IMG/VR virus record: IMGVR_UViG_3300035187_003505
DNA: 64,000 nt
Reading direction: 5' to 3' (one strand)
Origin: an uncultured virus (IMG/VR IMGVR_UViG_3300035187_003505)
Lineage: Duplodnaviria; Heunggongvirae; Uroviricota; Caudoviricetes
Below are positions 11,210 to 43,160 of the stretch, piece after piece (position 1 is the first letter of the stretch; every line of letters starts with the position of its first letter). The translations under genes and the position numbers were made by a program. The notes below the pieces were generated by a model. The model did not search any database, was not told the DNA's origin, and was given only the letters and a program-made list of their open reading frames with translations.

Positions 11210-12220
11210 ATGACTCTCGCTACCACTGCCCCAATTCTGGATACTGAAGTATTTACACCGTTCGATCGTGTCACTTCAGACATTGAAATAGCGGAAAAAG
11301 AGGCAATAGCCGATTTTGGTGACTATAAAAATCCCGATGTAAATAAGAGAGCGCGTAGTTATGTAGCCAAGCTGCGTAAAGTAAGAGCTTCGGTTGATAA
11401 GACTCGCAAAGCGCAGAATGAAGCAGCTCAAACATATATTCAAGATGTCAACACATTCTCTAAAAAGCTAGAAGCGCGTGTTACATCGCTCATAACGCCT
11501 CATGAAACAATCCTCAAGAGTATCAAAGATGAAGAAGATGCTCGTATAGCAGAGCACGAAAACAATATTCAGGTCATCATCGACATGGGGAAAGCTCCAG
11601 TAGGAGTTGGATCTGCACAGATCCAGGAATACCTAGACATCCTGAAGGGGATTGACCATAAAACCTTTGAAGAGTTTACCCCTAAGGCGGATGCGGAGCT
11701 AGTCATTGCTACCGCCGCGTTGGAGCAGACCCTCCAAGCTGCTTTGGACACTGAAGAAGCGGCGGCCCGAAGGGAGCAAGAGCGCAAGGATGCTGCAGAA
11801 GCCGCCCGTGTTAAACGGGAGCAGGATATAGCTGATAAGGCCGCAGCCGAAGCTAAAGAGAAGGCGGAGGCAGAGGCCGCTACCGCGCTGGACGCGGAGC
11901 GTAAGAAAACCGAAGCTGCTGAGCAACGTGCCGCGAGAGCAGAAGAGGAGAAAGAAGTAGTGGTGGCAGAGGCCGCTGCAGCGAAGGTTGAAGTAGTTCC
12001 ACAAGTAAGACTGGTGGTGAATAGAGGATGTGCCCCCTGGGCCCGTACCCCCGAGCCCGTAGCCGCGCCCCCCTCCGCTCCTACCAAAGCGCAACGCCGC
12101 AAGCTGTCCGAGTTTATCCAGGAAATGGTCTTGGATCACTCGGCCAAAGACTTTGCGCAACTGCTTGTAAACGGAGAACTCCACCCAGCAATTTCTATCG
12201 ACTGGAGTGAAGTCTGCTGA
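11210..12220 (+). CDS. long coiled-coil protein (DUF1351-like)
   Basis: AR...AKLRKVRASVDKTRK...I...E..R pattern with Ala/Glu/Lys-rich helix. Confidence 0.7.
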   Translation: MTLATTAPILDTEVFTPFDRVTSDIEIAEKEAIADFGDYKNPDVNKRARSYVAKLRKVRASVDKTRKAQNEAAQTYIQDVNTFSKKLEARVTSLITPHETILKSIKDEEDARIAEHENNIQVIIDMGKAPVGVGSAQIQEYLDILKGIDHKTFEEFTPKADAELVIATAALEQTLQAALDTEEAAARREQERKDAAEAARVKREQDIADKAAAEAKEKAEAEAATALDAERKKTEAAEQRAARAEEEKEVVVAEAAAAKVEVVPQVRLVVNRGCAPWARTPEPVAAPPSAPTKAQRRKLSEFIQEMVLDHSAKDFAQLLVNGELHPAISIDWSEVC

Positions 12221-12281
12221 TAACCAGCGGCTACGCTCTAAACTTCCGCATTCAAATCCACTGTCACTCGTTTCTTCACTA

Positions 12282-12557
12282 ATGGCCTCTACTTCCGACA
12301 ATTCCCCCACTCCCCGGCCCCGTTACGACATTGATAACATTTTCTGTTATCACGCCGCCAACCTTGGCCAAACTTCTCGGTATCGCTCACTCAGAGAAGC
12401 CGCTAAATCACTAGCTCAAGACATCCTTGATCTAACCCCACCCTCCCGCGAACAATCGTTAGCCCTAACCAAGCTTGAGGAAGCCGTCATGTGGGCTAAC
12501 GCTGCGATAGCTCGCAACGAGCCTGATACCACCACCTCGGAACAGGTGACTCCATGA
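12282..12557 (+). CDS. Acb2/Tad1-like helical hairpin protein (putative nucleotide-signal sponge)
   Basis: F.YH....Q..RY..LR..AK.LA..I....P.SREQSLALTKLEEAVMWANAAIAR signature. Confidence 0.7.
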   Translation: MASTSDNSPTPRPRYDIDNIFCYHAANLGQTSRYRSLREAAKSLAQDILDLTPPSREQSLALTKLEEAVMWANAAIARNEPDTTTSEQVTP

Positions 12558-26186: not shown

Positions 26187-28052
26187 TTGAAATCAGTATC
26201 TCCCGAAGCTCCCGATAATTCCGTCGCTATCGGCAATCGTAGCGATGCTGATGGCATGCGTACAGATGGAGCTTTAGTCAATGCCTTTACAGGCATGGGA
26301 ATAGCAGGTAAAGACAGAACCCAATCAACAGGCATACGGACTAGCTATTTACTTTCCCACCCAGAACTTGAAGCTCTTTACTCCGTAGGGCTACCCCGGC
26401 GTTTTGTCGATTCTATTGCCGATGAAGTCCTTAAACATCGTGTCACAATCAAACTAGGAGGCCGGAAAGCTTCCCAAGAGATTGACCAGATCACAGATTT
26501 TGAAGCCTACCTTAAACAGTTAAAATTCCACCGGGTGTATGCCGAAGCTGTCAGGCTCCAGCGCCTTTACGGTGGAGCCGCTATTGTCGCTCTAGTTGAT
26601 GATGGCAACGAAGACCCGGAAACACCTGTAAACTACGACCGCATTCGTGGTATTCGTGGACTGTGTGCGTTGTCGCGCCACGAAATATTCCCCATGGACG
26701 TGTCCGTTATGGACTACTCCAAACCCGAGATGTACAGAATTACTACTAATCAAAAATTAGACGAGAACCAGAAAAGCCCTGTAACAAATATGCGTATCCA
26801 TCACACTAGAGTTAGCCGCTTTGATGGACTATACCTACCCTGGCGACAACGCCAACAACAACAAGGTTGGGGCCAAGCACCATTACAAGTAGTATGGGAT
26901 TCATGGAAACTGTATGAAACGTCCATTAGAGGATTAGCTTCTAGTGTTACAGACTCTTCTTTGTTTTGGCATAAAGTGCCAGGGTTAATGGAGATGGTGA
27001 AAGCCGGTAACGCTAATCAGGTGATGAAACGCATGGAAATAAACAACATGTCTAGATCCTCCTATGGAGGATTCTTAATAGACGCGAATGAAGAGATAGG
27101 CTTTGCTGAAAGATCCCTCAGTAACATGGCGCAAGCCACCGCACCTTTTGCTGAGTACATGCAGGCTACTACTGGTTGGCCTGCGTCAATTCTAATGGGC
27201 ACCAGTCCTGGCGGCCTCGGGAAAGAAGGGCGGTTTGAAGAGCGAGTATGGGCCTCTCTAGTAGAGGACTGGCAGACTGTCTATTGCCAAGACCCTATTT
27301 CCGATATTTTTGAGCTTTTCATGCGGGCCAAGGACAGTCCCATGCGGGGCACCCCACCAGAATCGTGGGAAATTTCGTTCCCCTCGGTGTTCGCGGAAAC
27401 CGATACGGAAAAGCTTGCTGTACAGAAGTCCAGAGCTGAAATAGACAATATTTATGCAGCATTAAGAGTGTTAAGTCCTATAGAAATTAGAAATAATCGC
27501 TACGGCTCAGCGGAATACAGTATTGAGACTGTGCTGGACGAGACCGTATCCGCCCAGTTACAAATGCAAGAGGATAGCATGTTTGAGAACAATATGAATC
27601 AGCTACAAGCACAAGTATTCCAGGCGCAGGGTTTAGGACCAGACGGCCAGCCGATTGCCCCCGAGGGCGGCGAGACCCCTGGCCAGTCTCAACCTGCGTC
27701 TCAAGAGTCTCAACCGGCGAAGCCCGCGCCCAAGACCGACAGCTACGAGGCCCTGGGCCTGACCATCGACGTGCTCAAGCATCAAGACGGCGCCAGCCTG
27801 GGCTATCCGGTGGGGACCACTACCCGGAACGACGCAGCAGGCCCGGATCTTGGCGGCCTGGTGTTGCTCGGGCCCAGCCGATCCCGGCGCTATGCCCTGC
27901 TCAACTCCACCATTAAGCTCGATGGAGTGATCCTCCCTGGCCCGCAGGTTACTGGCTATGCCTCGCTCCGGGCTGCTAGGAAAGGCTTAGCGGCTTTTCT
28001 ACCCCAGCAGACGACCTTCACGCTCAAGCCCGCCCCCGAGGACGTTAAATGA
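26187..28052 (+). CDS. portal protein (DUF1073 type) with C-terminal extension
   Basis: N..TG.G..KD, RLYGGA, IHHTRVSRFDG, WG, L.G.SPGGL motifs; follows terL; start codon uncertain. Confidence 0.92.
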   Translation: MKSVSPEAPDNSVAIGNRSDADGMRTDGALVNAFTGMGIAGKDRTQSTGIRTSYLLSHPELEALYSVGLPRRFVDSIADEVLKHRVTIKLGGRKASQEIDQITDFEAYLKQLKFHRVYAEAVRLQRLYGGAAIVALVDDGNEDPETPVNYDRIRGIRGLCALSRHEIFPMDVSVMDYSKPEMYRITTNQKLDENQKSPVTNMRIHHTRVSRFDGLYLPWRQRQQQQGWGQAPLQVVWDSWKLYETSIRGLASSVTDSSLFWHKVPGLMEMVKAGNANQVMKRMEINNMSRSSYGGFLIDANEEIGFAERSLSNMAQATAPFAEYMQATTGWPASILMGTSPGGLGKEGRFEERVWASLVEDWQTVYCQDPISDIFELFMRAKDSPMRGTPPESWEISFPSVFAETDTEKLAVQKSRAEIDNIYAALRVLSPIEIRNNRYGSAEYSIETVLDETVSAQLQMQEDSMFENNMNQLQAQVFQAQGLGPDGQPIAPEGGETPGQSQPASQESQPAKPAPKTDSYEALGLTIDVLKHQDGASLGYPVGTTTRNDAAGPDLGGLVLLGPSRSRRYALLNSTIKLDGVILPGPQVTGYASLRAARKGLAAFLPQQTTFTLKPAPEDVK

Positions 28053-31015
28053 CCGACATTCGTACGGCTACTTTCCTAGCTATCCAACTGAGGGTGGATG
28101 CTAAACGGAAAACCTCCAATACAATTAAATGTAAACCTCCTAATAAACGATGCGGTCGCAGGTGCATCCCAGCAGAATGGGATTGCAGAATTAAAGGTGA
28201 AGGACATGATACTCATCAACGAGCATCTAACTTTGATCCTTTAAGTGGTGCTGCAAACATACAGCGCGGTACAAAGCGTGTAGCCAAAGGTATTGTCACC
28301 GGAAATGTAGCTGAGGTTGAAGGTGGAACCCGCGCTATCAAACGGGGAATCGTCAAGTCTATTCCAGGTGATGTAGAAAAGAAGAAAAGGGTAAGGGAAA
28401 GTCTAGACAAAAACACTAGGAATCTCACAATTGGACTCGCCTTGGTCACCGGAGGATTTGCACTCCACAATGTGATGAAGAAAGGCTGGCCCGCCTACGC
28501 TAGTGGCCCAGGCCGCGATCTAGATGACTCCATTCGGGTAGGTGTCTCTAGTGTAATGGACCGTGTTCCTGGTATAGGGGGAATCCGTGCAGAACAACGA
28601 CAACAAGCCCAAGGCGCAGGATTGCAAATAGCTAATCGCCTAAACAATATGGCGAATAGAGGACCGGATGCTCTAACACAGCAGCTAGCAGATGTCCCCG
28701 AGACCGTGCGTAATGGAGGTATTGGCCATAATGGTAGAAATAATGTATTAGCCGCACTTAATAGAACGGCGACAGAAGCTAGTACCCAAGGACAATCTTT
28801 TGAAGATTGGCGGCGTAATAGCAGAGAAGCGGTCCTAAACACAACAGTGGCAGGCCGTAGTATATTTGCTGATGATGCTACTTATCAATTCCTATCAAGG
28901 CAGCACGGCCTTGTAGGTCAACGCACAGCAAGTTTAGACAGTGACATAGCTTTTTTACAAAGTCACATGGCTGGCAGCTTAGCTAACCAATCTCAAGCAT
29001 TAAAGCGTGATGCGTTAAATCAAGGTTTCAGTATTCAAGCTACAGGTCGAGATAGTGGGCGCAAGCGTGGAGAAGCACGTACACAATATGTAGATCAAAT
29101 AATAAGACGTGATTTTGCTGGAGCACCTACGCAATTTCAGAATCAAATGCGTGCGCAGCTACGTGATTTGATCAATAAACCAGATGGGCATGATTTTACA
29201 TCCGATGCAGCTAAATTGTACAGAGATACCCGCAGTCAATTCAATCTGCATTTCCGTGCTCTAGCTGATTATGCAGCCGTACCTGCAGGTACACGGACAC
29301 GTCCAGAGCAGCGTAATTTAATAGAACATGTCAATATTGTCCATGCTCAAGTTCTGCATACTAGGCTGCCCGGTGCGTTGAGGGATGTGCAAATTGCAGG
29401 TCCTAGCCACGCAGAGTTCATTCAACAATACAGCTATGATACTAGCGTTATGGGAAATCGCACTTCTTCCCCATCTGCTCGGATGATAAAGGCTGCGGCT
29501 GAGGATATGGCAGGGTATCCGATGACTGGCTTGAACAATGCTCGTGATTACTTGCGGCAACAAGGTTACACCCAACTGAGTACAGTCACACCAACAGCAT
29601 TTCCTAGGAGTCGCCCTCGGGGGGATGTTGCAGATCGTCCGTCCCCTGCCTACATAGCAGCGTATATGGAAACCATGCACCGTTATGATGCAGGTAAAGG
29701 TAAGCCCTGTGGTGAAAGCTACATCCCACAAGCACATAAATGTGGAAAACAATCGGTCGCGACTTCTGCTGGACGAACTGAGACTTTTGCTAATGAGCAC
29801 GATGCACAGTACAAGACCAAGGCTATCGCTAGTTTTTTCGCTCGTGTGGGTATAACTGCAGGTGCAGGGGTTATGGCCTATAAATCCGCACAAGATGTTA
29901 TAGAGGGGAAAAGTATAAATACATTCGCGCCTATGGGCTATGCCTTAATTGCTAGTCTAGGGGTAGCTAGCTTGGTCCGTGAGCAAAAAGTCACCAAAAG
30001 TCCAGAAAGACTAGCTGCAGAATTGCAAGAACTAAAACGGGCTCAAGGCGTAGAGCCGGAAACACTCGATAAACTTAGCAAATTTGTTTTAGATAGCCAG
30101 ATTGATGTTAGACGAGTAGGTACTAAGGAGATTATAGTAGGAATGGCAGGATATTTTGATACGGCTAAACCGGATAGAGTTCATACAGTTGGCGGCTTTG
30201 GTACTCATGATAGAACCTATAAGAGCAAAGATCCTGTGGATGCTATAGACAATGGATTAAGACGGTTCATCGAAGATCGTTCTGCCCTATCTACAGATAA
30301 ACAGGATGCTCGTAACATTACTAATACCCGCGAGTTTAGACGTAATTTCGCTGTTTCTGGGTATATAGGTAATAACAAAGGTGCGGTGACAGCTATTACA
30401 ATCCACGAGCTGGGGCATGCTCTCCACTACAGAGGGGATTTTGCAACACCTAAATCAGTAAGAGTAAACGGTAAAGAGTATTCAGGGGCTGAATTACAAG
30501 CCGAACTTATACGTTCTTCCAGTATTTACGGGCAGAGTGATGTGCGTAGGGCAATCCAACCACAACCGGGCAGTTACTATCAGCAGGGTAATCGACTGGA
30601 GACTTTCACAGAAAATTTTGTGTTGTATGCGGCGAACGGTAAGAATATGAAAGAGGCATTCCCTGTTTCGTACGCTTGGACAAAAGCTACAGTGGATTAC
30701 GCGCTGGCTAAGCCAGCTAAAAAATCAGCACGCCCATTTACAGATGTATTCCGAGATCTAGCAAAAGGTACGGAGCGCTTCAATCCAGATAAAGTCCTAC
30801 CTAAACCTAAAACAAGGGCTAAGGAAGATAGCGCAGAGGACGACCGCTTCTTTGCCTTCTACAAAGAGATGCAGGAAGCCGCGACCTCGGGGGATGTCCT
30901 GAAGTCCATTCAAGTCCTTGCCCGTGCCCAAGTGCTACCTCAAGCACAGAAACAAATGATTGGAGCGTTGATGGAGACAGCGTGCCTTTACCGATCCCTT
31001 CGTGACTTATTATGA
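28049..31015 (+). CDS. putative virion-internal polyprotein: two CG-x3-I-x5-C modules, membrane helices, C-terminal zincin metallopeptidase
   Basis: CGRRCIPAEWDC and CGESYIPQAHKC; IHELGHALH plus downstream S.YG...ETFTENF. Confidence 0.75.
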   Translation: MTDIRTATFLAIQLRVDAKRKTSNTIKCKPPNKRCGRRCIPAEWDCRIKGEGHDTHQRASNFDPLSGAANIQRGTKRVAKGIVTGNVAEVEGGTRAIKRGIVKSIPGDVEKKKRVRESLDKNTRNLTIGLALVTGGFALHNVMKKGWPAYASGPGRDLDDSIRVGVSSVMDRVPGIGGIRAEQRQQAQGAGLQIANRLNNMANRGPDALTQQLADVPETVRNGGIGHNGRNNVLAALNRTATEASTQGQSFEDWRRNSREAVLNTTVAGRSIFADDATYQFLSRQHGLVGQRTASLDSDIAFLQSHMAGSLANQSQALKRDALNQGFSIQATGRDSGRKRGEARTQYVDQIIRRDFAGAPTQFQNQMRAQLRDLINKPDGHDFTSDAAKLYRDTRSQFNLHFRALADYAAVPAGTRTRPEQRNLIEHVNIVHAQVLHTRLPGALRDVQIAGPSHAEFIQQYSYDTSVMGNRTSSPSARMIKAAAEDMAGYPMTGLNNARDYLRQQGYTQLSTVTPTAFPRSRPRGDVADRPSPAYIAAYMETMHRYDAGKGKPCGESYIPQAHKCGKQSVATSAGRTETFANEHDAQYKTKAIASFFARVGITAGAGVMAYKSAQDVIEGKSINTFAPMGYALIASLGVASLVREQKVTKSPERLAAELQELKRAQGVEPETLDKLSKFVLDSQIDVRRVGTKEIIVGMAGYFDTAKPDRVHTVGGFGTHDRTYKSKDPVDAIDNGLRRFIEDRSALSTDKQDARNITNTREFRRNFAVSGYIGNNKGAVTAITIHELGHALHYRGDFATPKSVRVNGKEYSGAELQAELIRSSSIYGQSDVRRAIQPQPGSYYQQGNRLETFTENFVLYAANGKNMKEAFPVSYAWTKATVDYALAKPAKKSARPFTDVFRDLAKGTERFNPDKVLPKPKTRAKEDSAEDDRFFAFYKEMQEAATSGDVLKSIQVLARAQVLPQAQKQMIGALMETACLYRSLRDLL

Positions 31016-31939: not shown

Positions 31940-32830
31940 ATGCCGATCCCCGCAGCATTCCTTAAAAAGGGTCGTAAAAAGCCTGCCGAAGGTAGTGCTG
32001 CGGAGGAAGGAATGGAGTCTTCGAAGATGGAAAAAGGGGAGTCCCCCGAGTACGGTGATGCCCCCCACGGGAAAGGTAAGAAGCCCTGCGCCGCTTGCAT
32101 GAATAAGGGTAAGAAAAAAGGCTCTTGCGGCTGTGAGGATAAAGCCAAGATGGACCGGGCATTATCCCCGCAGGAATACCTCAGCGCATGTGATTTGGGT
32201 ATTCAGGGTCGCAGCAAAAACTACATCCGATCACGGCTCGATGCTGTAGCAACCATGAATAAAGGTCAGGGCACTAAGTGCGGCAACAGCTACATCGGAA
32301 AAGGGAAGAAGTGCAAATCCGGTGCTGGTGGATTGGCTAGCAGTACGCCCGCGAGTGGGGGTAAGAAGCCAGCGAAGTTTGAGCGTAATATCGCTTTAGG
32401 ATATGCAGGATTAAACGCTATTCAAGCAGCACAAGGACTTGCTTCGGGTAACTACGCAAGAGTCGGGGCCGCCGTAGGTTCGGGAATTGGTAACACACTC
32501 GCTGCCCGTAGCTTCCAGAAAGGTAACCGTGGGGCAGGCTATGGGCATTTCTTAGGTACATCTACTGCATTAGGTATGGCCGGTGCTGCTGGAGGTGCTG
32601 TTGCAGGGAGCCCTGGTACGCGACTTAAGGTCCGCGAATGGGTAAAAGAGGCCAGGGATAATCCCTATCGCGATCTCGGGGTTAAGCGGGGGGCCAGTCC
32701 AGAAGAAGTCAAAAAGGCGTACCGTAAGAAAGCCCAGCAAACTCACCCGGATGCTGGTGGTAGCGCAGAAGCTTTCCGTCGCACGAAGGCGTCATACGAG
32801 AAGATCAATAGCAAGTACAAGAATAAGTAA
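31940..32830 (+). CDS. CG-x3-I-x5-C module protein with Gly/Ala helices and C-terminal J-domain
   Basis: KCGNSYIGKGKKC; NPYRDLGV..GAS.EEVKKAYRKKAQQTHPDAGG with intact HPD. Confidence 0.85.
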   Translation: MPIPAAFLKKGRKKPAEGSAAEEGMESSKMEKGESPEYGDAPHGKGKKPCAACMNKGKKKGSCGCEDKAKMDRALSPQEYLSACDLGIQGRSKNYIRSRLDAVATMNKGQGTKCGNSYIGKGKKCKSGAGGLASSTPASGGKKPAKFERNIALGYAGLNAIQAAQGLASGNYARVGAAVGSGIGNTLAARSFQKGNRGAGYGHFLGTSTALGMAGAAGGAVAGSPGTRLKVREWVKEARDNPYRDLGVKRGASPEEVKKAYRKKAQQTHPDAGGSAEAFRRTKASYEKINSKYKNK

Positions 32831-32831
32831 T

Positions 32832-33677
32832 ATGCCACTTACTGCAGGAAAGCTCCGCCTCGACCTTAAGTGCGGCTCCGGGTATATTGCTCAAAGCAAG
32901 AAATGCCACAAAGAGAGCAGCCCCCCGAGCCCGAAACCCAGTTCCCCAACAGGTCGCAAAGTTGCTATAGGGGCGGCCCTGGCCAGTACCGCCGCTCTCG
33001 GGGCTGGCCTGGCTCTGTCCTCCTCCCGCAAGCAGATCTTCAATGCTCCAGCAGCAGTGCGGCGTGCCGCCCAAAACGGAGTAGCTGAAGTTGTAAATAG
33101 AGCTACATCACCCAAACCTTCAATGAAGTTCTCCTCTGAGGGGACTAGTGAGATGGTGAAAGGCTTAAAGAAGCGGTCTATTCGCCGCAAGTTGGTATTA
33201 ACTATGGAGGCTGCTAGGCGCAAGCAAGAGCCTGGTTATCGCAAACCCCCACTAAAGTTGACTGCTGGAGCAATGCGTGAACCGCGTAAAGGTAAAAAAC
33301 CTAGGTCTTTGCTGCGTACAGCACAGCTAACGATGGAAGCTGCAAGGCGTAAGCAGGAGCCTGGTTATAGAAAGCCTGCTAGGAACTCCAAGCGGAATGA
33401 CAAATCCCCCGCCTGGCAGCGCAAGGAGGGCAAAAACCCCGAGGGCGGCCTTAACGCCGCAGGCATCGCCTCCTACCGCAAGCAGCATCCAGGCTCTAAG
33501 CTCTCCCTCGCGGTAACTACCGACCCATCCAAACTCAAACCCGGATCAGCGAGAGCAGAAAGACGACGGAGGTTCTGTGCCCGCATGTCGGGAATGAAGC
33601 GTAAGCTAACCAGCGCGAAAATCGCCAATAACCCAGATTCACGGATCAACAAGACGTTACGGAAGTGGAACTGCTGA
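32832..33677 (+). CDS. CG-x3-I-x5-C module protein with C-terminal DUF6321-like basic domain
   Basis: ATG 32832; KCGSGYIAQSKKC; AWQRKEGKNPEGGLN...RRRFCARMSGMK...SRINKTLRKWNC. Confidence 0.8.
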   Translation: MPLTAGKLRLDLKCGSGYIAQSKKCHKESSPPSPKPSSPTGRKVAIGAALASTAALGAGLALSSSRKQIFNAPAAVRRAAQNGVAEVVNRATSPKPSMKFSSEGTSEMVKGLKKRSIRRKLVLTMEAARRKQEPGYRKPPLKLTAGAMREPRKGKKPRSLLRTAQLTMEAARRKQEPGYRKPARNSKRNDKSPAWQRKEGKNPEGGLNAAGIASYRKQHPGSKLSLAVTTDPSKLKPGSARAERRRRFCARMSGMKRKLTSAKIANNPDSRINKTLRKWNC

Positions 33678-33691
33678 TCCGCTAATAAGAA

Positions 33692-34333
33692 TCAAACCTT
33701 TGCTAATGTTACCAGTTCCGGCTGGTATTGGTATTTACCATTCCTATCCGCATAAGTAGTTTCACAGGGATCCCCCTCAAAGAAAAGTAGTTGGCAAATA
33801 CCCTCTTCGGCATAAATACGGCAATCGGCACCAGAAGAATTACTGAACTCTAGAGTTAGATGTCCCTCCCATGCAGCCTCTGCTGGCGTGGTATTCACAA
33901 TGATCCCCAACCGAGCATAAGTGCTTTTTCCCAAGCAGATCACAGTGATATTCGGCGGCACCCGTAGTTTCTCCAGCGCTACCCCGAGACCGTAGGTATG
34001 CGCCGGCAGGATGAAGTAGCGACCATCCTCATCCTGATGGAGAAGAGCTGGCTCCAGGTTGGCGGGATTGACCCGCTTGGGGTTCATCACCGTGCCGGGG
34101 ACATGGCGGAAAATCTTAAATTCGGCGGCTGACAACCTAATGTCGTAGCCATAACTACTTGTGCCAAAGCTCAGCACCGGAACCTCGGCTGGCGGCCAAT
34201 CAAGATCCAGGAGCGAGGCACGTTCGCTCTGGAAGCGCTCGGCTACTTTGACCTTCCGCACTAGCTCCTGCTGATAGGGCTCGATCATCCCAGCGGCAGC
34301 TTGCTGCCTTATCCAGATGTCGTTCTTAAGCAC
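33692..34333 (-). CDS. dcd: dCTP deaminase
   Basis: SSYGYD, GKSTYARLG, TPAEAAWEG.LTLE, EGICQ, Y.DR.GKYQ. Confidence 0.95.
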   Translation of the reverse strand: MLKNDIWIRQQAAAGMIEPYQQELVRKVKVAERFQSERASLLDLDWPPAEVPVLSFGTSSYGYDIRLSAAEFKIFRHVPGTVMNPKRVNPANLEPALLHQDEDGRYFILPAHTYGLGVALEKLRVPPNITVICLGKSTYARLGIIVNTTPAEAAWEGHLTLEFSNSSGADCRIYAEEGICQLLFFEGDPCETTYADRNGKYQYQPELVTLAKV

Positions 34334-34667
34334 AAGCTTTTTGGCGAGTAGCTGCTAGCTTACGCCCCCGAGCGCGACGGTTGTGGCGTTTACGTCCAAT
34401 AGTGGGGGAGGCGTTAACAAAGATAGGTAGATAGTTAGGTCTCGTATTGTGATAGACGCGATTCATTGCCGCCTTGGTGCGTTCAGATAATATAGACGCA
34501 AACTGCTTAGAATCGAGCAATATAGTGTCCAGTTTCTCCCTCATGTTAAAGTTCTCTACGATGCGCGTAACCGGCTCATTTAGTAGTTCAAGCATTTCAT
34601 CAGCAGTCATGCCTGTAGTACTGCAAGCAGCATTTTGTATGTTTATCCCTAGGTCGTCCTTAAACAT
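34326..34667 (-). CDS. small protein with capsid-protein-derived segment and Arg-rich C-terminus
   Basis: TADEMLELLNEPVTRIVEN matches MCP TADEVLELLNEPVTRIVEN; 8-bp overlaps with neighbours. Confidence 0.7.
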   Translation of the reverse strand: MFKDDLGINIQNAACSTTGMTADEMLELLNEPVTRIVENFNMREKLDTILLDSKQFASILSERTKAAMNRVYHNTRPNYLPIFVNASPTIGRKRHNRRARGRKLAATRQKACA

Positions 34668-34932
34668 GGCAGTTTGAAAAGTAAGAGCGTGGTTTAACTA
34701 AATTAAATGGCTGATCCGCTACTGGATTAAGCATGTAGAAAGGGTGCCTTACTACACGTAGGATTTGAGGATTGCGGCCATAAATATTGATGAGCTGCTC
34801 TCTAAAAACTAAGATTTGCGTGTTTAGATCCTCTAGACTCAACCCGCCATCGGGTTCATACATAAACAACGCAAGTGCTGTAGTGGTTTGTACTGCTACG
34901 AGGTCTATCATAAGAAGTGATGAGTTATTCAT
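34660..34932 (-). CDS. hypothetical protein
   Basis: 8-bp overlaps within a four-gene minus-strand cassette. Confidence 0.6.
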   Translation of the reverse strand: MNNSSLLMIDLVAVQTTTALALFMYEPDGGLSLEDLNTQILVFREQLINIYGRNPQILRVVRHPFYMLNPVADQPFNLVKPRSYFSNCHV

Positions 34933-35215
34933 AAAAAGCTCTGTGTAGTTCGCACATAGCTACTAACCTCTTCCCCCGAGCACGCCTGCGTCTTCGCTTA
35001 CGCCCGATAGGGAATGACTCCTCCTTAACCCATGAATAAAACAAACCCCGCATAATCTCATCACGCCGCTGTAGCTCTAAGTTCAGCTTACGACTAAAAT
35101 CCACAAAAGGTTTAATGCTCTCGTTCAAAGCAGCACCAAAAGCCCGTAGAGCCTCTTTTAACTGCGCCATATTAGCATTTATCTTGGCCACAAGCTCTTT
35201 ATCCATAAAACCCAA
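34925..35215 (-). CDS. hypothetical protein with Arg-rich C-terminus (start uncertain)
   Basis: PIGRKRRRRRARGKRL shared with 34326..34667. Confidence 0.65.
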   Translation of the reverse strand: MGFMDKELVAKINANMAQLKEALRAFGAALNESIKPFVDFSRKLNLELQRRDEIMRGLFYSWVKEESFPIGRKRRRRRARGKRLVAMCELHRAFYE

Positions 35216-35269
35216 GACAAGTGTCCACGCAGGTGCCTCGCTAGAATAGCATACATACCACCGGTAATC

Positions 35270-36319
35270 ATGCCCATAACCACCGCTTCACTAAGATTCG
35301 ACAAGAAATGCGGTGCGTCAGGCATACCAGACAACAAGAAATGCTCCAAAAAGACCACTGCGCCCAGTTCTAATCCAACAATCACCCCGAGCCTGATCGG
35401 CAAAGTCGCCCTTGGGGCCGGGATCGCAGTCCTAGGCATCTCCGCCGCACGCCGTTTCGCTCGCCGCGACCCCAATTGGCAGGGCTTCACCGCCCCTGGT
35501 GAGGACTGGGATCGAATCGAAGCTGAGGCGCGGAAGCGCGGCAAACAGTGGGATGTCTTTGAAGATAATAAGAAAGCCAACGCAGTTGCATGTGCAGCAT
35601 CCAAGATTGATCACTGGATTAGAGAAGATGACTTTGTTCCGACTCCACGATGTCTAGGGGGCCAAGGTGCTTACGGTAATTATGTTGTCCACCCGTCTAA
35701 TAAATACGGTATAAAATACTTAAAGAACAACGACCTCGGGGCTATACCTAATAAATTCCTGAGCGGCCCCACAGAAAGCTTACTCCCTGAAGGGGAGATA
35801 CTAAGGCACGCTAACATCAATAATGTGCCATCCCCTCAGCTATACAAAGCTACTGACCGGGTATTGGTCATGGAGCACTTGAACAATTATTCCCCTTTAT
35901 CTACGCATGGGGTAAGTTCTAGTATGTTCTCACTTAAATACACCGCACCACTACAGTTAAAACGCCAAATGTTAGACCTCTACCGCTCTTTACACATGAG
36001 TGGTCTCGTACACAACGATGGGCACTTAAAAAATATAATGTTTAACCCAAAAACCAGAAGCCTTAAATTCATCGACTTTGGCCTAGCCGAATTCGCTACA
36101 GAAAATCGAACTAGCGCCCGCGATTTCATCAATGAGCTTACTCAAGTACCACGCCGCGTAGGTTTATCAGAATACGCAATAGAGACATTTGAAAGCCGGT
36201 GGGCTCCTCAGTGGGATCCTATAGAAAACGCGCTGCGTACTTATGAAACCGATCACGTAGACAAAGTTGTAAGAGGTTATTACAGAAGTTTAGAGACCGC
36301 TTTATTAAAAAGCTACTAG
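35270..36319 (+). CDS. CG-x3-I-x5-C module protein with membrane helix and Ser/Thr protein kinase-like domain
   Basis: GQGAYG loop, YGIK, EGEIL, HNDGHLKN, IDFGLA; N-term KCGASGIPDNKKC. Confidence 0.88.
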   Translation: MPITTASLRFDKKCGASGIPDNKKCSKKTTAPSSNPTITPSLIGKVALGAGIAVLGISAARRFARRDPNWQGFTAPGEDWDRIEAEARKRGKQWDVFEDNKKANAVACAASKIDHWIREDDFVPTPRCLGGQGAYGNYVVHPSNKYGIKYLKNNDLGAIPNKFLSGPTESLLPEGEILRHANINNVPSPQLYKATDRVLVMEHLNNYSPLSTHGVSSSMFSLKYTAPLQLKRQMLDLYRSLHMSGLVHNDGHLKNIMFNPKTRSLKFIDFGLAEFATENRTSARDFINELTQVPRRVGLSEYAIETFESRWAPQWDPIENALRTYETDHVDKVVRGYYRSLETALLKSY

Positions 36320-36355: not shown

Positions 36356-37666
36356 ATGAGCCTAGCAACAGCTACCCGCTACGACTTCCTCTCGCTGCCT
36401 ATCGTCGGCTGCAAGATAGACCCGGAGTCGGGCTACCTCCAGGTCCGGGCCCGCACCGCCCGCACCGGCCTTCAAAAATACCGCCGCGCTGACGGCAGGG
36501 TCGAAACTGAGTACCGCCCGGAAGAGGAAGTAGGAAAGCCAGAAACCCTAGCATCCTTCGGGATGAAGCCAGTTACTTGGCATCATCCTCCGCAGCTCCT
36601 TGATGCGGATAATACAAAGATGTATCAAATCGGGCATGCCGGCTCGCATGTCCACTTCAGCGACGGTTTTGTTGAAGTAGCGCTTCTTGTTACTGACCAA
36701 AAATCCATCGACAACATCCAACGTAAGGATTCTCCCGATCACGCTGTAGAAGTCTCCGCCGGCTACCGGGTCGATTATGACCCTACCCCCGGTCAAACAC
36801 CATCAGGCGAGTCCTATGACGGTGTCCAACGCAATATCCGCGTCAACCACATCGCCATTGTCCCTAAAGGACGTGCTGGCCCAGAAGTCAGGTTGCTGTT
36901 AGATCGAATGGATTCTACGGCAGCGGTATCTTTTGATCAAGCACTCCTCGATTCCCCCGAGCCCGTACCCCCCGCGAACCCCGTTATGGCCCGTATCAAT
37001 CTCGATGGAGTCGATGTTGAGGTTGCCCCTGAATATGCTCCGCTGGTGCAAGCCTATGTGAGGGATTCCAGCAAGGCCCTCACTGAACTGCGCACTGCTA
37101 ATTCCACTCTGCAGGAAAAGCTAGATACCCTGCAGAGTGATTTTTCTGACCTGGAAGCTGAAAAGGAGGCTGCCGAGGGTCGCGCCGATGGGCTTCAGGC
37201 CACGATTGATACCGGGGAACCCAGTGAGATTCACCTCGACGAAGACAACATCGACGCGGTTCTCGCTCAGATCCCAGCTTCCCGGTTGGACACCTTGGTA
37301 GCCGCCCGCCTCGACACTCTCCAACTCTTAGCACCCGCCTTTGAAGACGACTTCGTCTTCGACGGCATCGAGGCCGATCAGTTGTACATCCAAGCCTACG
37401 AAAATATTTTCGGTGAAGCCCCAGATGAGGAGATGGAAGTCGCCCAAATGAGGGGCCGGGTTGAGGGGGCCCTGGCCACGCTTGATGCCGAAGATCCCCC
37501 CGAGGCCGAACCAGCTCCCCGAACCGATGCTGCCGATTCCACCGGCAAGCTGCGCACGGCCCTTCGCGGTGTCCAACGGCGCGATGCTGCAGCATCCTCC
37601 GATAGCTACAAGCAGAAAACCAACAATAGTTGGCAGAAACCGCTGACTGCTTCTAAGAGGCGATGA
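36356..37666 (+). CDS. prohead protease/scaffold (DUF2213 type)
   Basis: ARTG.Q.Y, YRPEEEV, PVTWHHP, EVSAGY, Q.NI..NHIAIV..GRAG; coiled-coil C-half. Confidence 0.92.
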   Translation: MSLATATRYDFLSLPIVGCKIDPESGYLQVRARTARTGLQKYRRADGRVETEYRPEEEVGKPETLASFGMKPVTWHHPPQLLDADNTKMYQIGHAGSHVHFSDGFVEVALLVTDQKSIDNIQRKDSPDHAVEVSAGYRVDYDPTPGQTPSGESYDGVQRNIRVNHIAIVPKGRAGPEVRLLLDRMDSTAAVSFDQALLDSPEPVPPANPVMARINLDGVDVEVAPEYAPLVQAYVRDSSKALTELRTANSTLQEKLDTLQSDFSDLEAEKEAAEGRADGLQATIDTGEPSEIHLDEDNIDAVLAQIPASRLDTLVAARLDTLQLLAPAFEDDFVFDGIEADQLYIQAYENIFGEAPDEEMEVAQMRGRVEGALATLDAEDPPEAEPAPRTDAADSTGKLRTALRGVQRRDAAASSDSYKQKTNNSWQKPLTASKRR

Positions 37667-38409: not shown

Positions 38410-39324
38410 ATGTCCAACCAACGCCTCGACAACCACGGTTTCTTCCTCGCGAGGGAACTGGAGCATATCATCACTAGGGCTTTTGAAGTCGAGTATGCCG
38501 ACATCAAATACGCTAGTGTACTCCCCATTAACAGTGAGGTGTCTAACGGCAAGGATTCCTACACATATAGAATCTACGACCAAAAAGGCTCCATGCGGCG
38601 AATTGCCGATAAGGCGAAGGATCTCCCCCGCGCTGATGTGTTCCGTAAGGAAGTAACCCACAAGGTTGAATCCTACGGTTCAAGCTTCGGCTACACCGTC
38701 CAGGAGCTGCGGGCTGCGGCTGAAGTGCCCAATACAAACCTGGAGCAACGCCGCGCTAACGCTGTGCGTCGCGTCTATGAAGAAACTATGCAGCGCATTT
38801 CCTACTTCGGAGATCCTGCTGCCGGCCTTCGCGGCTTCTTCAACTCCGATCAACTCGACAAGATCGTACCTGATAAGTGGTTCGACACGTCCGGCATCAC
38901 CGCCGATGAAGTTCTCGAACTCCTCAATGAACCGGTAACCCGGATCGTCGAGAACAGCAACATGAAAGAACAACCAGACACCATGTTGGTTCCGTACAAT
39001 GTGTTCCGAAAGATCTCCACAATGAAGCTCGGGACGGCTTCGGACACCACTGTCATGGAGTTTTTCCTCGATACCAACGAGGTTATTAAGGACATTGAAC
39101 CCATCAATGAGCTTACTGCCTCTAAATCCGGCGGGTTCTTGTCTAAAGACCGGATCATCACCTATGAGCGTAACCCGGACAAGCTGGAGATGCACCTCCC
39201 CCAGCCACTGGAGTTTTTCCCTCCTCAACTCCAGGGCCTGGAATACACCGTGCCTGCGCACGCCCGCCACGGTGGGGTAGCCATCTACTTCCCCCGTTCC
39301 GTCATGGTGATGGAGAAAGCCTGA
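38410..39324 (+). CDS. major capsid protein (DUF2184 type, HK97 fold)
   Basis: FLARELEHI, DLPRAD, GY...ELRAA, YFGD...L.G.FN, GGV.IY.P motifs. Confidence 0.93.
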   Translation: MSNQRLDNHGFFLARELEHIITRAFEVEYADIKYASVLPINSEVSNGKDSYTYRIYDQKGSMRRIADKAKDLPRADVFRKEVTHKVESYGSSFGYTVQELRAAAEVPNTNLEQRRANAVRRVYEETMQRISYFGDPAAGLRGFFNSDQLDKIVPDKWFDTSGITADEVLELLNEPVTRIVENSNMKEQPDTMLVPYNVFRKISTMKLGTASDTTVMEFFLDTNEVIKDIEPINELTASKSGGFLSKDRIITYERNPDKLEMHLPQPLEFFPPQLQGLEYTVPAHARHGGVAIYFPRSVMVMEKA

Positions 39325-40704: not shown

Positions 40705-43160
40705 TGGCTGACATTCGAGCAATAGCGTCTACCGCGTTTGAGTCCCCTCTCACATGGTTTGGCAACGTAGTCCCAGGCCCTAATGACGTTGCATCTTCAA
40801 ACGGGTTTGCGCCGCCAATTAGCACGGCTATCATCGTACAAGCACTAAGCAACGCCGCTGGTGGCGGCGCAGTAGCAGGTGGTTCTTTTCCGTTGCTTAA
40901 TGGTGGCAACGTAACTTTCACAAACGCAAACGGGTTGCTGGGCTCCGCAAACAATCCCGTCGTCACTACAGCGTCATTGGCGTTGGGGCAGTCAGCCAGC
41001 GTTTCGGGACCGTCAGCAAACATCCCAGCAACGGCTGGGATTCTCATAAACCACTCAGGCAGTGGAGTTTTAACCGTAACGTCAAACCTTAATGGCAGCA
41101 CCGGTCAAACATCCACGGGCTTTGGTGTGGTGGCCCTAACTGGGGTCGGAGTGCTTAACACGATAGGAACAGTTACTGGACCTTCCAACGTCGTCGGAAA
41201 CGGCACTGCTGCGGGCGTGTTCGTGTCAGGCAACGGCACCTGGAACCACACCGGCTCTATCGTAGGGGGCACAACCAATACTGGGATTACTGCCGGAGCG
41301 TACATTACTGCGGCTTCAGCTAATGTAACTATCAATGGCAGCGTAACGGGTGGAGCGTCAACAGTATTTTCAAATACTGCGCGATCTCCCGGAGTGGAAA
41401 ATGCGTCATCCTCAACTTTGACCATAAACGGTCAGTGCCAGTCGAGTGCAACTCAGCCGGCGATTGGCCCTGGCTCTATAAATCAAGTCACCCGCCTTTC
41501 GGGTCCATTCCTGACGGGCGCCACTGGCAATATAAATTCTAATCTGGCTGTCAAGTGGGGAGCCACGGCAGGAAACCCAGCATCGTCTATGGAAGTGCCA
41601 AACTTCAACTTCACTACCAAGGTGTCTTGGTACACGGCAAACAATTATCCAGTGGGTGGTTATCCATTGCAATCCAATGTTGTACTGGGGACTGTCTACG
41701 GACCAAACTCTGAATTTACCGGCACGTCCGCCAGGCCAGCAACGGGGTCTGTTGCGTTTGGTGTTGCGGTAGGCCAGGCTACCGGCACTGCAATCCTAGA
41801 CGGAGGTAGTTTACGCGCAGCCTTAGGCATGGGAAGTGCCAATCTGGACACACAATTTGCAGGGATTCCTGCAGCGGTTTGGAGCCATATCACCAGAACT
41901 CTCACCAGTGGTGGCGGTGGAGGAGGTAGTTCTCCAACGGCTGCCGAAATAGCCACTGAAGTGTGGTCTACAGCAACGCGCACACTGACCACCGCGTTCC
42001 CTTCGGTCCCGACTGCTTCTGACATTGCCGTTGCTGTTTGGAGTGCAGCAACTCGAACTATTACCAACACCATTCCCTCTGCTATTGACATTGCGACGGC
42101 TGTATGGGGTGCAGTGACAAGAACCCTTACGAGTAGCAGTGCCCCTACGGCTACAGACGTGGCAACTGCTGTGTGGTCTAACACTGGTCGCACCATCACA
42201 GGTGGCACCGTAAATACCATCTTAGACAAGGCAGGGTATTCACTAACTTCTGCCGAGCGTCAAGCCATCGCCACTGCAGTAGAGCAAAGCATTCTCAATG
42301 AAACCGATGGGCAAGCCATCCTAAATGCAATAGTTGGCGCAATAGGCAATGCAAATGTCGATCAAATTGCTCTAATTGCTGCAATCCGCGCCGACCTGGA
42401 GCGTAGTGGCGGAATGTTGGCCGGTAGGTCCACACTTACCGCCGGAGGCGTGCGTGCGGAGCTGAGCACTGAATTAGCGCGGCTTGATGTTGCTACTTCC
42501 ACCCGGCTGGCCTCTGCCAGCTATTCAGCGGCACCAACAACCGCCGCAATTCGCACTGAGCTGAGTGTCGAACTGGCACGGCTCGACACTCCCGTATCGT
42601 CCAGACTGGCCCCTTCGGGCACCCTGGCTCGCGTTACCCTGACGGACACCACTACAACGCTTACAAGCCAGCCTTCATTCCCTGCTACTTCAGAAATAGC
42701 CTCCGCAGTGTGGAGCACCCCTAGCCGCACTGTAACCGGAGGTAGTGTAGATAAAACCGGATACTCCTTAACCTCTGCTGAGCGTCAAGCTATAGCTACG
42801 GCAGTGGAACAAAGCATCCTAAACGAGAGCGATGGGCAAGCTATATTGAACGCGATCGTCGGAGCTATAGGTAATAGCAGTGTCGATCAAGTCGCTCTAG
42901 TAGCAGCTATCCGTGCAGATATGGAACGTGCGGGAGGTATGCTATCAGGGCGTTCGACACTCACAGCGGCCCAAGTATGGACCCACACCAGTCGTACTAT
43001 CACTGGTGGTACTATTGACAACGCTTCACAAACTACTATAGCGGCTGGGGAAGTTGCTGCAGCAGTACGGGCAGAACTCAATCCAGAACTAGAGCGCTTA
43101 CGCAATTGTAGCACTATGGACACAACCGCAGCCGCATTAGCAAACGCCCTTAAACAGTAA
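40704..43160 (+). CDS. fibre-like structural protein with beta-rich N-half and IA.AVW...TRT repeats
   Basis: Gly/Thr/Ser/Asn-rich; several VW..TRT repeats; internal duplication of about 73 aa. Confidence 0.75.
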   Translation: MADIRAIASTAFESPLTWFGNVVPGPNDVASSNGFAPPISTAIIVQALSNAAGGGAVAGGSFPLLNGGNVTFTNANGLLGSANNPVVTTASLALGQSASVSGPSANIPATAGILINHSGSGVLTVTSNLNGSTGQTSTGFGVVALTGVGVLNTIGTVTGPSNVVGNGTAAGVFVSGNGTWNHTGSIVGGTTNTGITAGAYITAASANVTINGSVTGGASTVFSNTARSPGVENASSSTLTINGQCQSSATQPAIGPGSINQVTRLSGPFLTGATGNINSNLAVKWGATAGNPASSMEVPNFNFTTKVSWYTANNYPVGGYPLQSNVVLGTVYGPNSEFTGTSARPATGSVAFGVAVGQATGTAILDGGSLRAALGMGSANLDTQFAGIPAAVWSHITRTLTSGGGGGGSSPTAAEIATEVWSTATRTLTTAFPSVPTASDIAVAVWSAATRTITNTIPSAIDIATAVWGAVTRTLTSSSAPTATDVATAVWSNTGRTITGGTVNTILDKAGYSLTSAERQAIATAVEQSILNETDGQAILNAIVGAIGNANVDQIALIAAIRADLERSGGMLAGRSTLTAGGVRAELSTELARLDVATSTRLASASYSAAPTTAAIRTELSVELARLDTPVSSRLAPSGTLARVTLTDTTTTLTSQPSFPATSEIASAVWSTPSRTVTGGSVDKTGYSLTSAERQAIATAVEQSILNESDGQAILNAIVGAIGNSSVDQVALVAAIRADMERAGGMLSGRSTLTAAQVWTHTSRTITGGTIDNASQTTIAAGEVAAAVRAELNPELERLRNCSTMDTTAAALANALKQ

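Follow-up and report, generated by a model that had tools for sequence, protein, structure and literature searches.

The DNA analyzed here is a stretch of 64,000 nucleotides (hereafter the window) from a tailed phage, with genes for a terminase, a portal, a DUF2213 prohead protease/scaffold-type protein (36356..37666, + strand), a cement protein, and a PF09950 major capsid protein (MCP; 38410..39324, + strand). Among isolates, Synechococcus phage S-CBS4 has the most similar MCP (52.5% identical), and the closest solved MCP structure is that of cyanophage Pam3 (8hdt, E 9e-31); the window MCP belongs to this S-CBS4/Pam3 capsid family (PF09950). Lake metagenomes make up 14 of the 24 runs among the matches listed with at least half of the region's words (7 possibly being the source), and we infer that the host is a cyanobacterium. 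Relatives of the MCP (67-68%; L231-L233) also occur in actinobacterial and Rubrivivax MAGs, on short contigs that may represent phage DNA binned in error. Elsewhere, the window carries an Acb2/Tad1 sponge-family gene (12207-12557, + strand; PF24729, E 4.3e-18), a short tandem repeat at 2243-2388 (shift of about 63 nt, 92%), and an 818-aa gene with an internal 220-nt duplication (72%) at 42223-42967.

Between a DUF6321 gene and a kinase gene lies a cassette (33678..35269, - strand) that is inverted in its entirety relative to the late genes. It consists of three small overlapping genes followed by a dCTP deaminase gene (33692..34333, - strand; PF22769, E 3.8e-22). The first small gene, ORF1 (34925..35206, - strand), begins at the ATG at 35206, whereas the open reading frame list starts it at a TTG at 35215; the second, ORF2 (34660..34932, - strand), encodes 90 aa of family phrog_28250 (E 0.00067). 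The third, ORF3 (34326..34667, - strand), encodes 113 aa, and its start overlaps ORF2 while its stop overlaps the dCTP deaminase gene. In sister phages L022 and L023 (MCP 89-90% identical), the DUF6321 and kinase genes adjoin directly and the cassette is absent, which makes it lineage-specific. The 5′ part of the dCTP deaminase gene has been swapped between strains (window 33692-34333 versus L002:6335-6940, 213 versus 201 aa), which points to the cassette as a frequent site of recombination. Its ends carry no telling repeats, a sigma-70 promoter search found none, and Rfam gave no match. Contigs of three metatranscriptomes cover parts of the protease-cement-MCP region and none covers ORF1 to ORF3, though contigs cannot show absence. 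Several late-region genes (32751-33677, 35270-36319, 28049-31015, and 31940-32830) share a KCG-x-S-x-I-xxx-KKC type motif, and sister strains L002 and L003 carry such a motif in a second kinase gene located just past the dCTP deaminase gene.

The first-pass annotation described ORF3 as carrying a mimic of the phage's own MCP, with 26 of 35 residues identical and a perfect core of 14, and this holds. ORF3 residues 17-51 (34515..34619, - strand) align with MCP residues 160-194 (38887..38991, + strand) with 26/35 residues and 76/105 nt identical, including the run LELLNEPVTRIVEN, and the alignment score of 137 compares with a maximum of 59 in 2000 shuffles. Profile searches with ORF3 agree (Pfam PF09950, E 0.0034; PHROG 264, E 0.0006). 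The synonymous differences reported earlier are likewise real, as the codons differ at 13 of the 26 identical residues. Mapped onto a predicted MCP structure, the segment appears to form a helix (165-181), a loop, and a strand (191-195); only the secondary structure was taken from this poor model (pLDDT 48.6), for which 8hdt is still the first structural match. We take the segment to lie in the A-domain, judging from the HK97 fold and an alignment to Pam3 8hdt. A predicted complex of ORF3 with the MCP scored 0.00 against a mark of 0.32, which carries no weight either way given that controls were not folded.

A second MCP echo had been proposed in the upstream gene at 34660-34932. Its score of 26 is reached by 69% of 2000 shuffles (p=0.69) and the MCP profile gives E 0.12, so we attribute it to chance and do not regard ORF2 as MCP-like. 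When the window and all loci were searched in six frames using profiles of nine genes, no other short MCP pieces came to light, although at its threshold the same search missed the prohead-protease piece of a sister ORF1 discussed below.

ORF3 had also been called an antisense gene. It does lie on the strand opposite the MCP gene, but it is 4.3 kb off, does not overlap that gene, and yields an mRNA with the same sense as MCP mRNA over the piece. An antisense RNA that regulates the MCP would instead arise by plus-strand read-through over the piece and pair with MCP mRNA. The reverse complement of the piece is indeed 72% complementary to the corresponding MCP mRNA stretch. However, the longest perfect run is 7 nt, G-U pairs are possible at only 3 of the 29 mismatches, and at -88.6 kcal/mol the duplex is less stable than the duplexes formed with sister MCP genes by descent alone (-102.8 to -122.2). 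Complementarity is thus no higher than descent provides. Together with the wrong sense of ORF3 mRNA, conservation at the protein level, and the lack of an Rfam match, this makes the suggested source of antisense RNA extremely improbable.

Beyond the capsid piece, ORF3 has a different ancestry. The Arg-rich tail noted in the first-pass annotation is present, and ORF3 residues 54-108 (34344..34508, - strand) are homologous (42% identity, E 2.9e-4) to P0061, a stand-alone protein without the capsid piece whose part of the alignment begins at its residue 5. P0061 is one of only three proteins that match ORF3 among 1.84 billion representatives. Within this half lies the in-frame Arg motif PTIGRKRHNRRARG (34365..34406, - strand), in which the window allele has H for one R where most alleles read RRNRR. 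ORF1 carries a motif of the same PTIGRKRRxRRARG type. Homology of residues 54-108, upstream of the motif, to a stand-alone family member and the recurrence of the motif in ORF1 indicate that ORF3 is a chimera: 16 residues, a capsid helix-loop-strand, and then a member of an undescribed phage Arg-motif family.

That family extends well beyond the cassette. The pattern PTIGRKRRxRRARG occurs at 29 viral loci in 23 distinct ORFs whose N-termini vary, and it is spelled in 21 ways at the DNA level; the search pattern selects for the motif, so these counts demonstrate spread rather than conservation. The widespread small proteins of L178-L206 have very mosaic flanks, and an Arg-motif gene also directly precedes a dCTP deaminase gene in L194, L198, and L204, outside the lineage. 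None of 20 Arg-motif proteins gave an informative Pfam or PHROG match, and we found no paper on the family by title or abstract opening. Look-alikes in the ESM Atlas (scattered AAA-lid for ORF3, nothing for P0061) were set aside, and PADLOC matches at E 0.02 were judged to be chance.

A search for the same fusion in related phages recovered ORF3 at 8 viral loci and 1 metagenome locus, and 20 protein alleles were identified on 62 contigs. ORF3 is present in 8 of the 9 loci whose MCP is at least 99% identical, the ninth being too short upstream. Natural deletions are informative about which parts of ORF3 are retained. Four in-frame deletions join the ORF1 start to ORF3 residue 12, 21, 36, or 49, and all four retain the Arg half, whereas half or all of the piece is gone in two; the search required part of ORF3, so total losses would escape it. 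In L007 and L008 (5986-6344), deletion of ORF1-ORF2 is combined with a 35-nt tandem duplication that ends the fused frame; the result is a leader of 25 codons, with a stop that overlaps the start of a 94-aa ORF3 beginning inside the piece. Such losses are rare, as the piece is whole or nearly so on 59 of 62 contigs and half or fully lost on 3 of 62.

The origin of the piece can be approached through its closest relatives. Its best DNA match is the phage's own MCP gene (76/105), and its closest protein segments are those of the own MCP, P0008, and P0012, each at 26/35. A tree of the 35 residues joins the piece to P0012 (bootstrap 85), although not strongly enough to identify a donor. Among the 14 closest segments, the pair A165 and E181 is common only to the piece and the own MCP, and 6 of the 9 residue differences occur in some sister MCP. 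No donor emerged among the MCP loci of viral contigs (best 80 of 204 loci compared), in a longer-protein search with the piece, or among isolates, where ORF3 matched S-CBS4 only in the capsid gene itself. Two degenerate patterns matched 14 and 16 stretches in viral contigs, all from this lineage or L021-L023; one such pattern gave 0 matches in genomes, and an MCP scan of genomes yielded 3 distant loci, again with no donor. The closest sister MCPs (80-90%; P0007, P0008, P0010, and P0012) entered the donor comparison as protein sequences only.

Two lines of evidence bear on the age and retention of the piece. First, among 5000 neutral copies of the own MCP segment given 29 nucleotide changes, the mean number of residues kept was 16.7 and the maximum 24 of 35, and none reached 26. 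Second, the capsid genes of this family are strongly codon-biased and the piece is not. Its GC3s is 0.47, compared with 0.64 for the own MCP segment and 0.56-1.0 for 42 distinct sister segments, and its codons have P=0.001 under the head-gene usage of the phage but 0.81 under its background usage. The codons of the piece match the usage of none of 58 distinct sister MCP genes, although the single-gene codon tables of that test overstate the penalty for unseen codons. In simulations of neutral drift from a capsid-like donor at six ages, the codon shift and at most 9 residue changes occurred jointly in at most 1.3% of runs. Codon usage at background rather than capsid-like levels suggests that, unless the donor was atypical, the piece is probably old and long kept as protein, the first of two origins that had been put forward for it.

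The other proposed origin was capture from a relative's capsid gene, and its neutral form deserves consideration. The piece would then be a fairly recent acquisition from an unsampled phage with unusual, AT-rich capsid codons, tolerated simply because it leaves the frame open and the dCTP deaminase gene coupled. Relative to the own MCP, the piece has pS 0.78 and pN 0.129, while the sister MCP segments of L021-L023 have pS 0.73-0.84 and pN 0.09-0.12; sister MCPs differ from the own MCP to the same extent, so the pS/pN contrast alone cannot separate capture from conservation. The residues shared with sister MCPs, the tree placement with P0012, and the protein-only comparison of the closest sisters all leave room for such a donor. 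So does the pN/pS of whole ORF3, which at 0.58 (17 to 9, six alleles) is indistinct from neutral (p=0.17) and compares with 0.04 for the MCP (five alleles). Against it, no donor appears in viral contigs, genomes, or isolates. Moreover, third positions in this phage are AT-rich (GC3s 0.33-0.52), yet its own MCP gene is biased (GC3s 0.65, with CTA at 2% of Leu and ATA at 3% of Ile). In the piece, CTA, TTA, and ATA make up 3 of 8 Leu and Ile codons, compared with at most 5% in the 58 sister genes. The case for which the first-pass annotation would have called the segment a recombination remnant, with near-identical DNA in another phage's MCP gene and an ORF that is not conserved, was not found. 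Overall, we view a neutral relic as rather unlikely.

If the piece was kept as protein, the pattern of change within it should reflect what it was kept for. Among 44 distinct MCP segments, S183 and P189 are invariant, and both are replaced in the piece, where I163M, S183C/F, and P189L are residues found in none of the 44. All ten polymorphisms of the piece, including two from fusion allele P0003, are residues seen in no MCP, and seven fall in the 20 conserved columns, compared with 5.7 expected if change were blind to them. T177, T191, N173, and R178 are polymorphic, and T177A occurs on 13, T191I on 11, and E170G on 9 of 59 contigs, a count that excludes P0004 and P0005. In the MCP itself, 12 full-length alleles show 17 changes in 298 positions and 1 in the same 35 positions, versus 8 of 35 in the piece (p=0.002). 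One MCP allele of the same population, P0050, carries K186R, a residue also found in the captured piece.

Within ORF3, 9 of the 15 positions that precede the piece have changed, compared with 8 of 35 inside the piece, 13 of 35 beyond it, and 1 of 17 in the Arg motif, the best conserved part (18 allele rows, 17 distinct, with three fusion alleles left out). The dN/dS comparison gives a divided answer. Whole ORF3 cannot be distinguished from neutral, whereas the piece alone has 2 nonsynonymous to 3 synonymous changes among six DNA alleles and a pN/pS of 0.19, with p=0.08 against neutral and p=0.33 against the head genes. The piece nonetheless retains 26 of 35 residues, compared with 26-30 of 35 among the 13 sister MCPs listed. 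From these patterns of change, the piece is apparently not kept under capsid-type constraint. The loss or polymorphism of capsid-invariant residues and the cutting or loss of the piece in variants mean that the proposed capsid functions are unsupported by the change pattern.

Those proposals share the premise that the piece acts as a capsid-derived binding surface, which is possible but unlikely in our estimation. It would account for the long retention of the piece as protein, for its 14-residue core, which is identical in the own MCP, and for the A165 and E181 pair. MCPs and prohead proteases are both known immune triggers (PMC9712102, PMC13728456). CapRel-SJ46 is triggered by an MCP and Lit by the Gol peptide of T4 gp23 (PMC9712102), such that hosts sense capsid protein surfaces and even a short peptide. 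The phage encodes an Acb2/Tad1 sponge, which implies that it meets such immune systems. As a decoy, ORF3 would soak up a host capsid sensor before late expression, a version that seems doubtful. ORF3 shares MCP sequence and has been kept as protein (given an ordinary donor codon bias), as might be expected of a decoy, but the capsid-invariant residues are not preserved. Still less probable is a modulator or interference factor, in which the Arg-rich protein would be docked on the capsid, the scaffold, or the capsid of a rival phage.

Several observations argue against such a surface. Capsid-invariant residues are lost or commonly polymorphic, and deletions remove the piece. According to the same source, CapRel binds mainly a folded P-domain sheet and spine helix, plus extra A-domain loops, rather than an isolated helix, and Gol, the short MCP peptide named there, activates defense instead of blocking it (PMC9712102). 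The MCP and Gol triggers described there are activators, not decoys, and they belong to E. coli systems. No capsid-fragment decoy was found in the literature by title or abstract opening, a scope outside which most subscription papers fall.

A second capture of a head-protein segment keeps the look-alike reading alive. In a sister strain, the ORF1 allele L002:5269-5742 (the same in L006) has a C-terminal extension after the Arg motif, and its residues 117-148 match prohead proteases (phrog_530, E 1.1e-5; DUF2213, E 0.0003-0.0014), the family of the DUF2213 gene in the window. This piece is 14/31 identical (45%) to the best sampled protease, with a score of 72 that was reached by 0 of 200 shuffles. 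It is degenerate and partly tandem, being preceded by a weaker overlapping copy. Its GVTPD codons fall in a short DNA palindrome. A search for relatives returned two known records and two matches judged to be chance, the best isolate match having E 1. None of 20 other Arg-motif proteins contains a head-protein piece. Perhaps the cassette is a workshop that fuses head-protein infection signals to an Arg-rich module, as selected decoys or targeting tags that counter immunity based on sensing capsid or protease, although we consider this improbable. If it were true, variation at capsid-invariant sites would represent arms-race change rather than decay. However, the protease piece is at most 45% identical to sampled proteases, and both captures may reflect the mere nearness of the cassette to the head genes, which, with the easy recognition of well-profiled genes, explains them equally well.

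A capsid homolog outside the capsid gene is known from a satellite. Ccm of SaPIbov5 is satellite-encoded, is built into pentamers, and acts on head assembly (PMC8569155). ORF3 differs in having only 35 of 304 MCP residues (160-194), without a full HK97-type fold, and the phage that encodes it has a head module of its own. CpmB and Rcm are small helical, satellite-encoded redirectors of capsid size that act on assembly and resemble or compete with scaffold (PMC12409344), whereas the ORF3 piece derives from the capsid protein itself. ORF3 was therefore rejected both as a satellite redirector of these types, given the terminase, portal, protease, cement, and MCP genes of the window, and as a Ccm-type paralogue, given its restriction to MCP residues 160-194.

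The explanation we favor, with confidence and doubt in about equal measure, is that the capsid piece has been co-opted as an N-terminal helix in an Arg-rich accessory protein. In the distant past, a 105-nt stretch from a major capsid gene would have been fused in frame to the 5′ end of a small Arg-motif gene. The capsid origin is demonstrated; as to donor and route, we infer that the stretch came from the ancestor of the lineage or a close sister and was joined within a cassette that is prone to recombination and lies 1-4 kb from the head genes. The codon tests suggest that the fusion would then have been translated and held under purifying selection until its synonymous sites reached background codons. 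The piece may now serve as an amphipathic helix and no longer as a capsid surface, in a slot that unrelated segments fill in other family members. The Arg motif would be the working part, which, judging from its composition, most likely binds RNA, DNA, or another acidic target. Arginine-rich-motif peptides such as lambda N form a short Arg-rich helix that could bind nucleic acid. Binding by the proteins described here is proposed by analogy with such peptides, from which they differ in having no sequence family match.

The co-opted helix is consistent with the homology to stand-alone P0061, the varied N-termini in the motif family, the replacement of capsid-invariant residues, and deletions that always spare the Arg half. 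ORF3 residues 22-49 are also predicted as one helix, in a low-confidence model (pLDDT 62, pTM 0.24) whose weakness tempers its value. Other findings fit less easily. The piece varies less than its flanks, its residue retention near the level of sister MCPs is high for a generic helix, it is whole or nearly whole on 59 of 62 contigs, and a second head-protein piece occurs in the same cassette of a sister strain.

The birth of a gene by capture of a gene piece is a known kind of event. ORF3 offers, at a minimum, a clean, datable case in which an accessory gene arose from a sub-domain piece of a capsid gene and was apparently preserved by selection afterwards. Its living intermediates (fusions, deletions, and a duplication) occur in one lake-phage population. 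If the piece does act as a capsid look-alike, the phage would have made a counter-defense from its own immune trigger. The finding also points to an undescribed and widespread family of phage proteins that carry the Arg motif.
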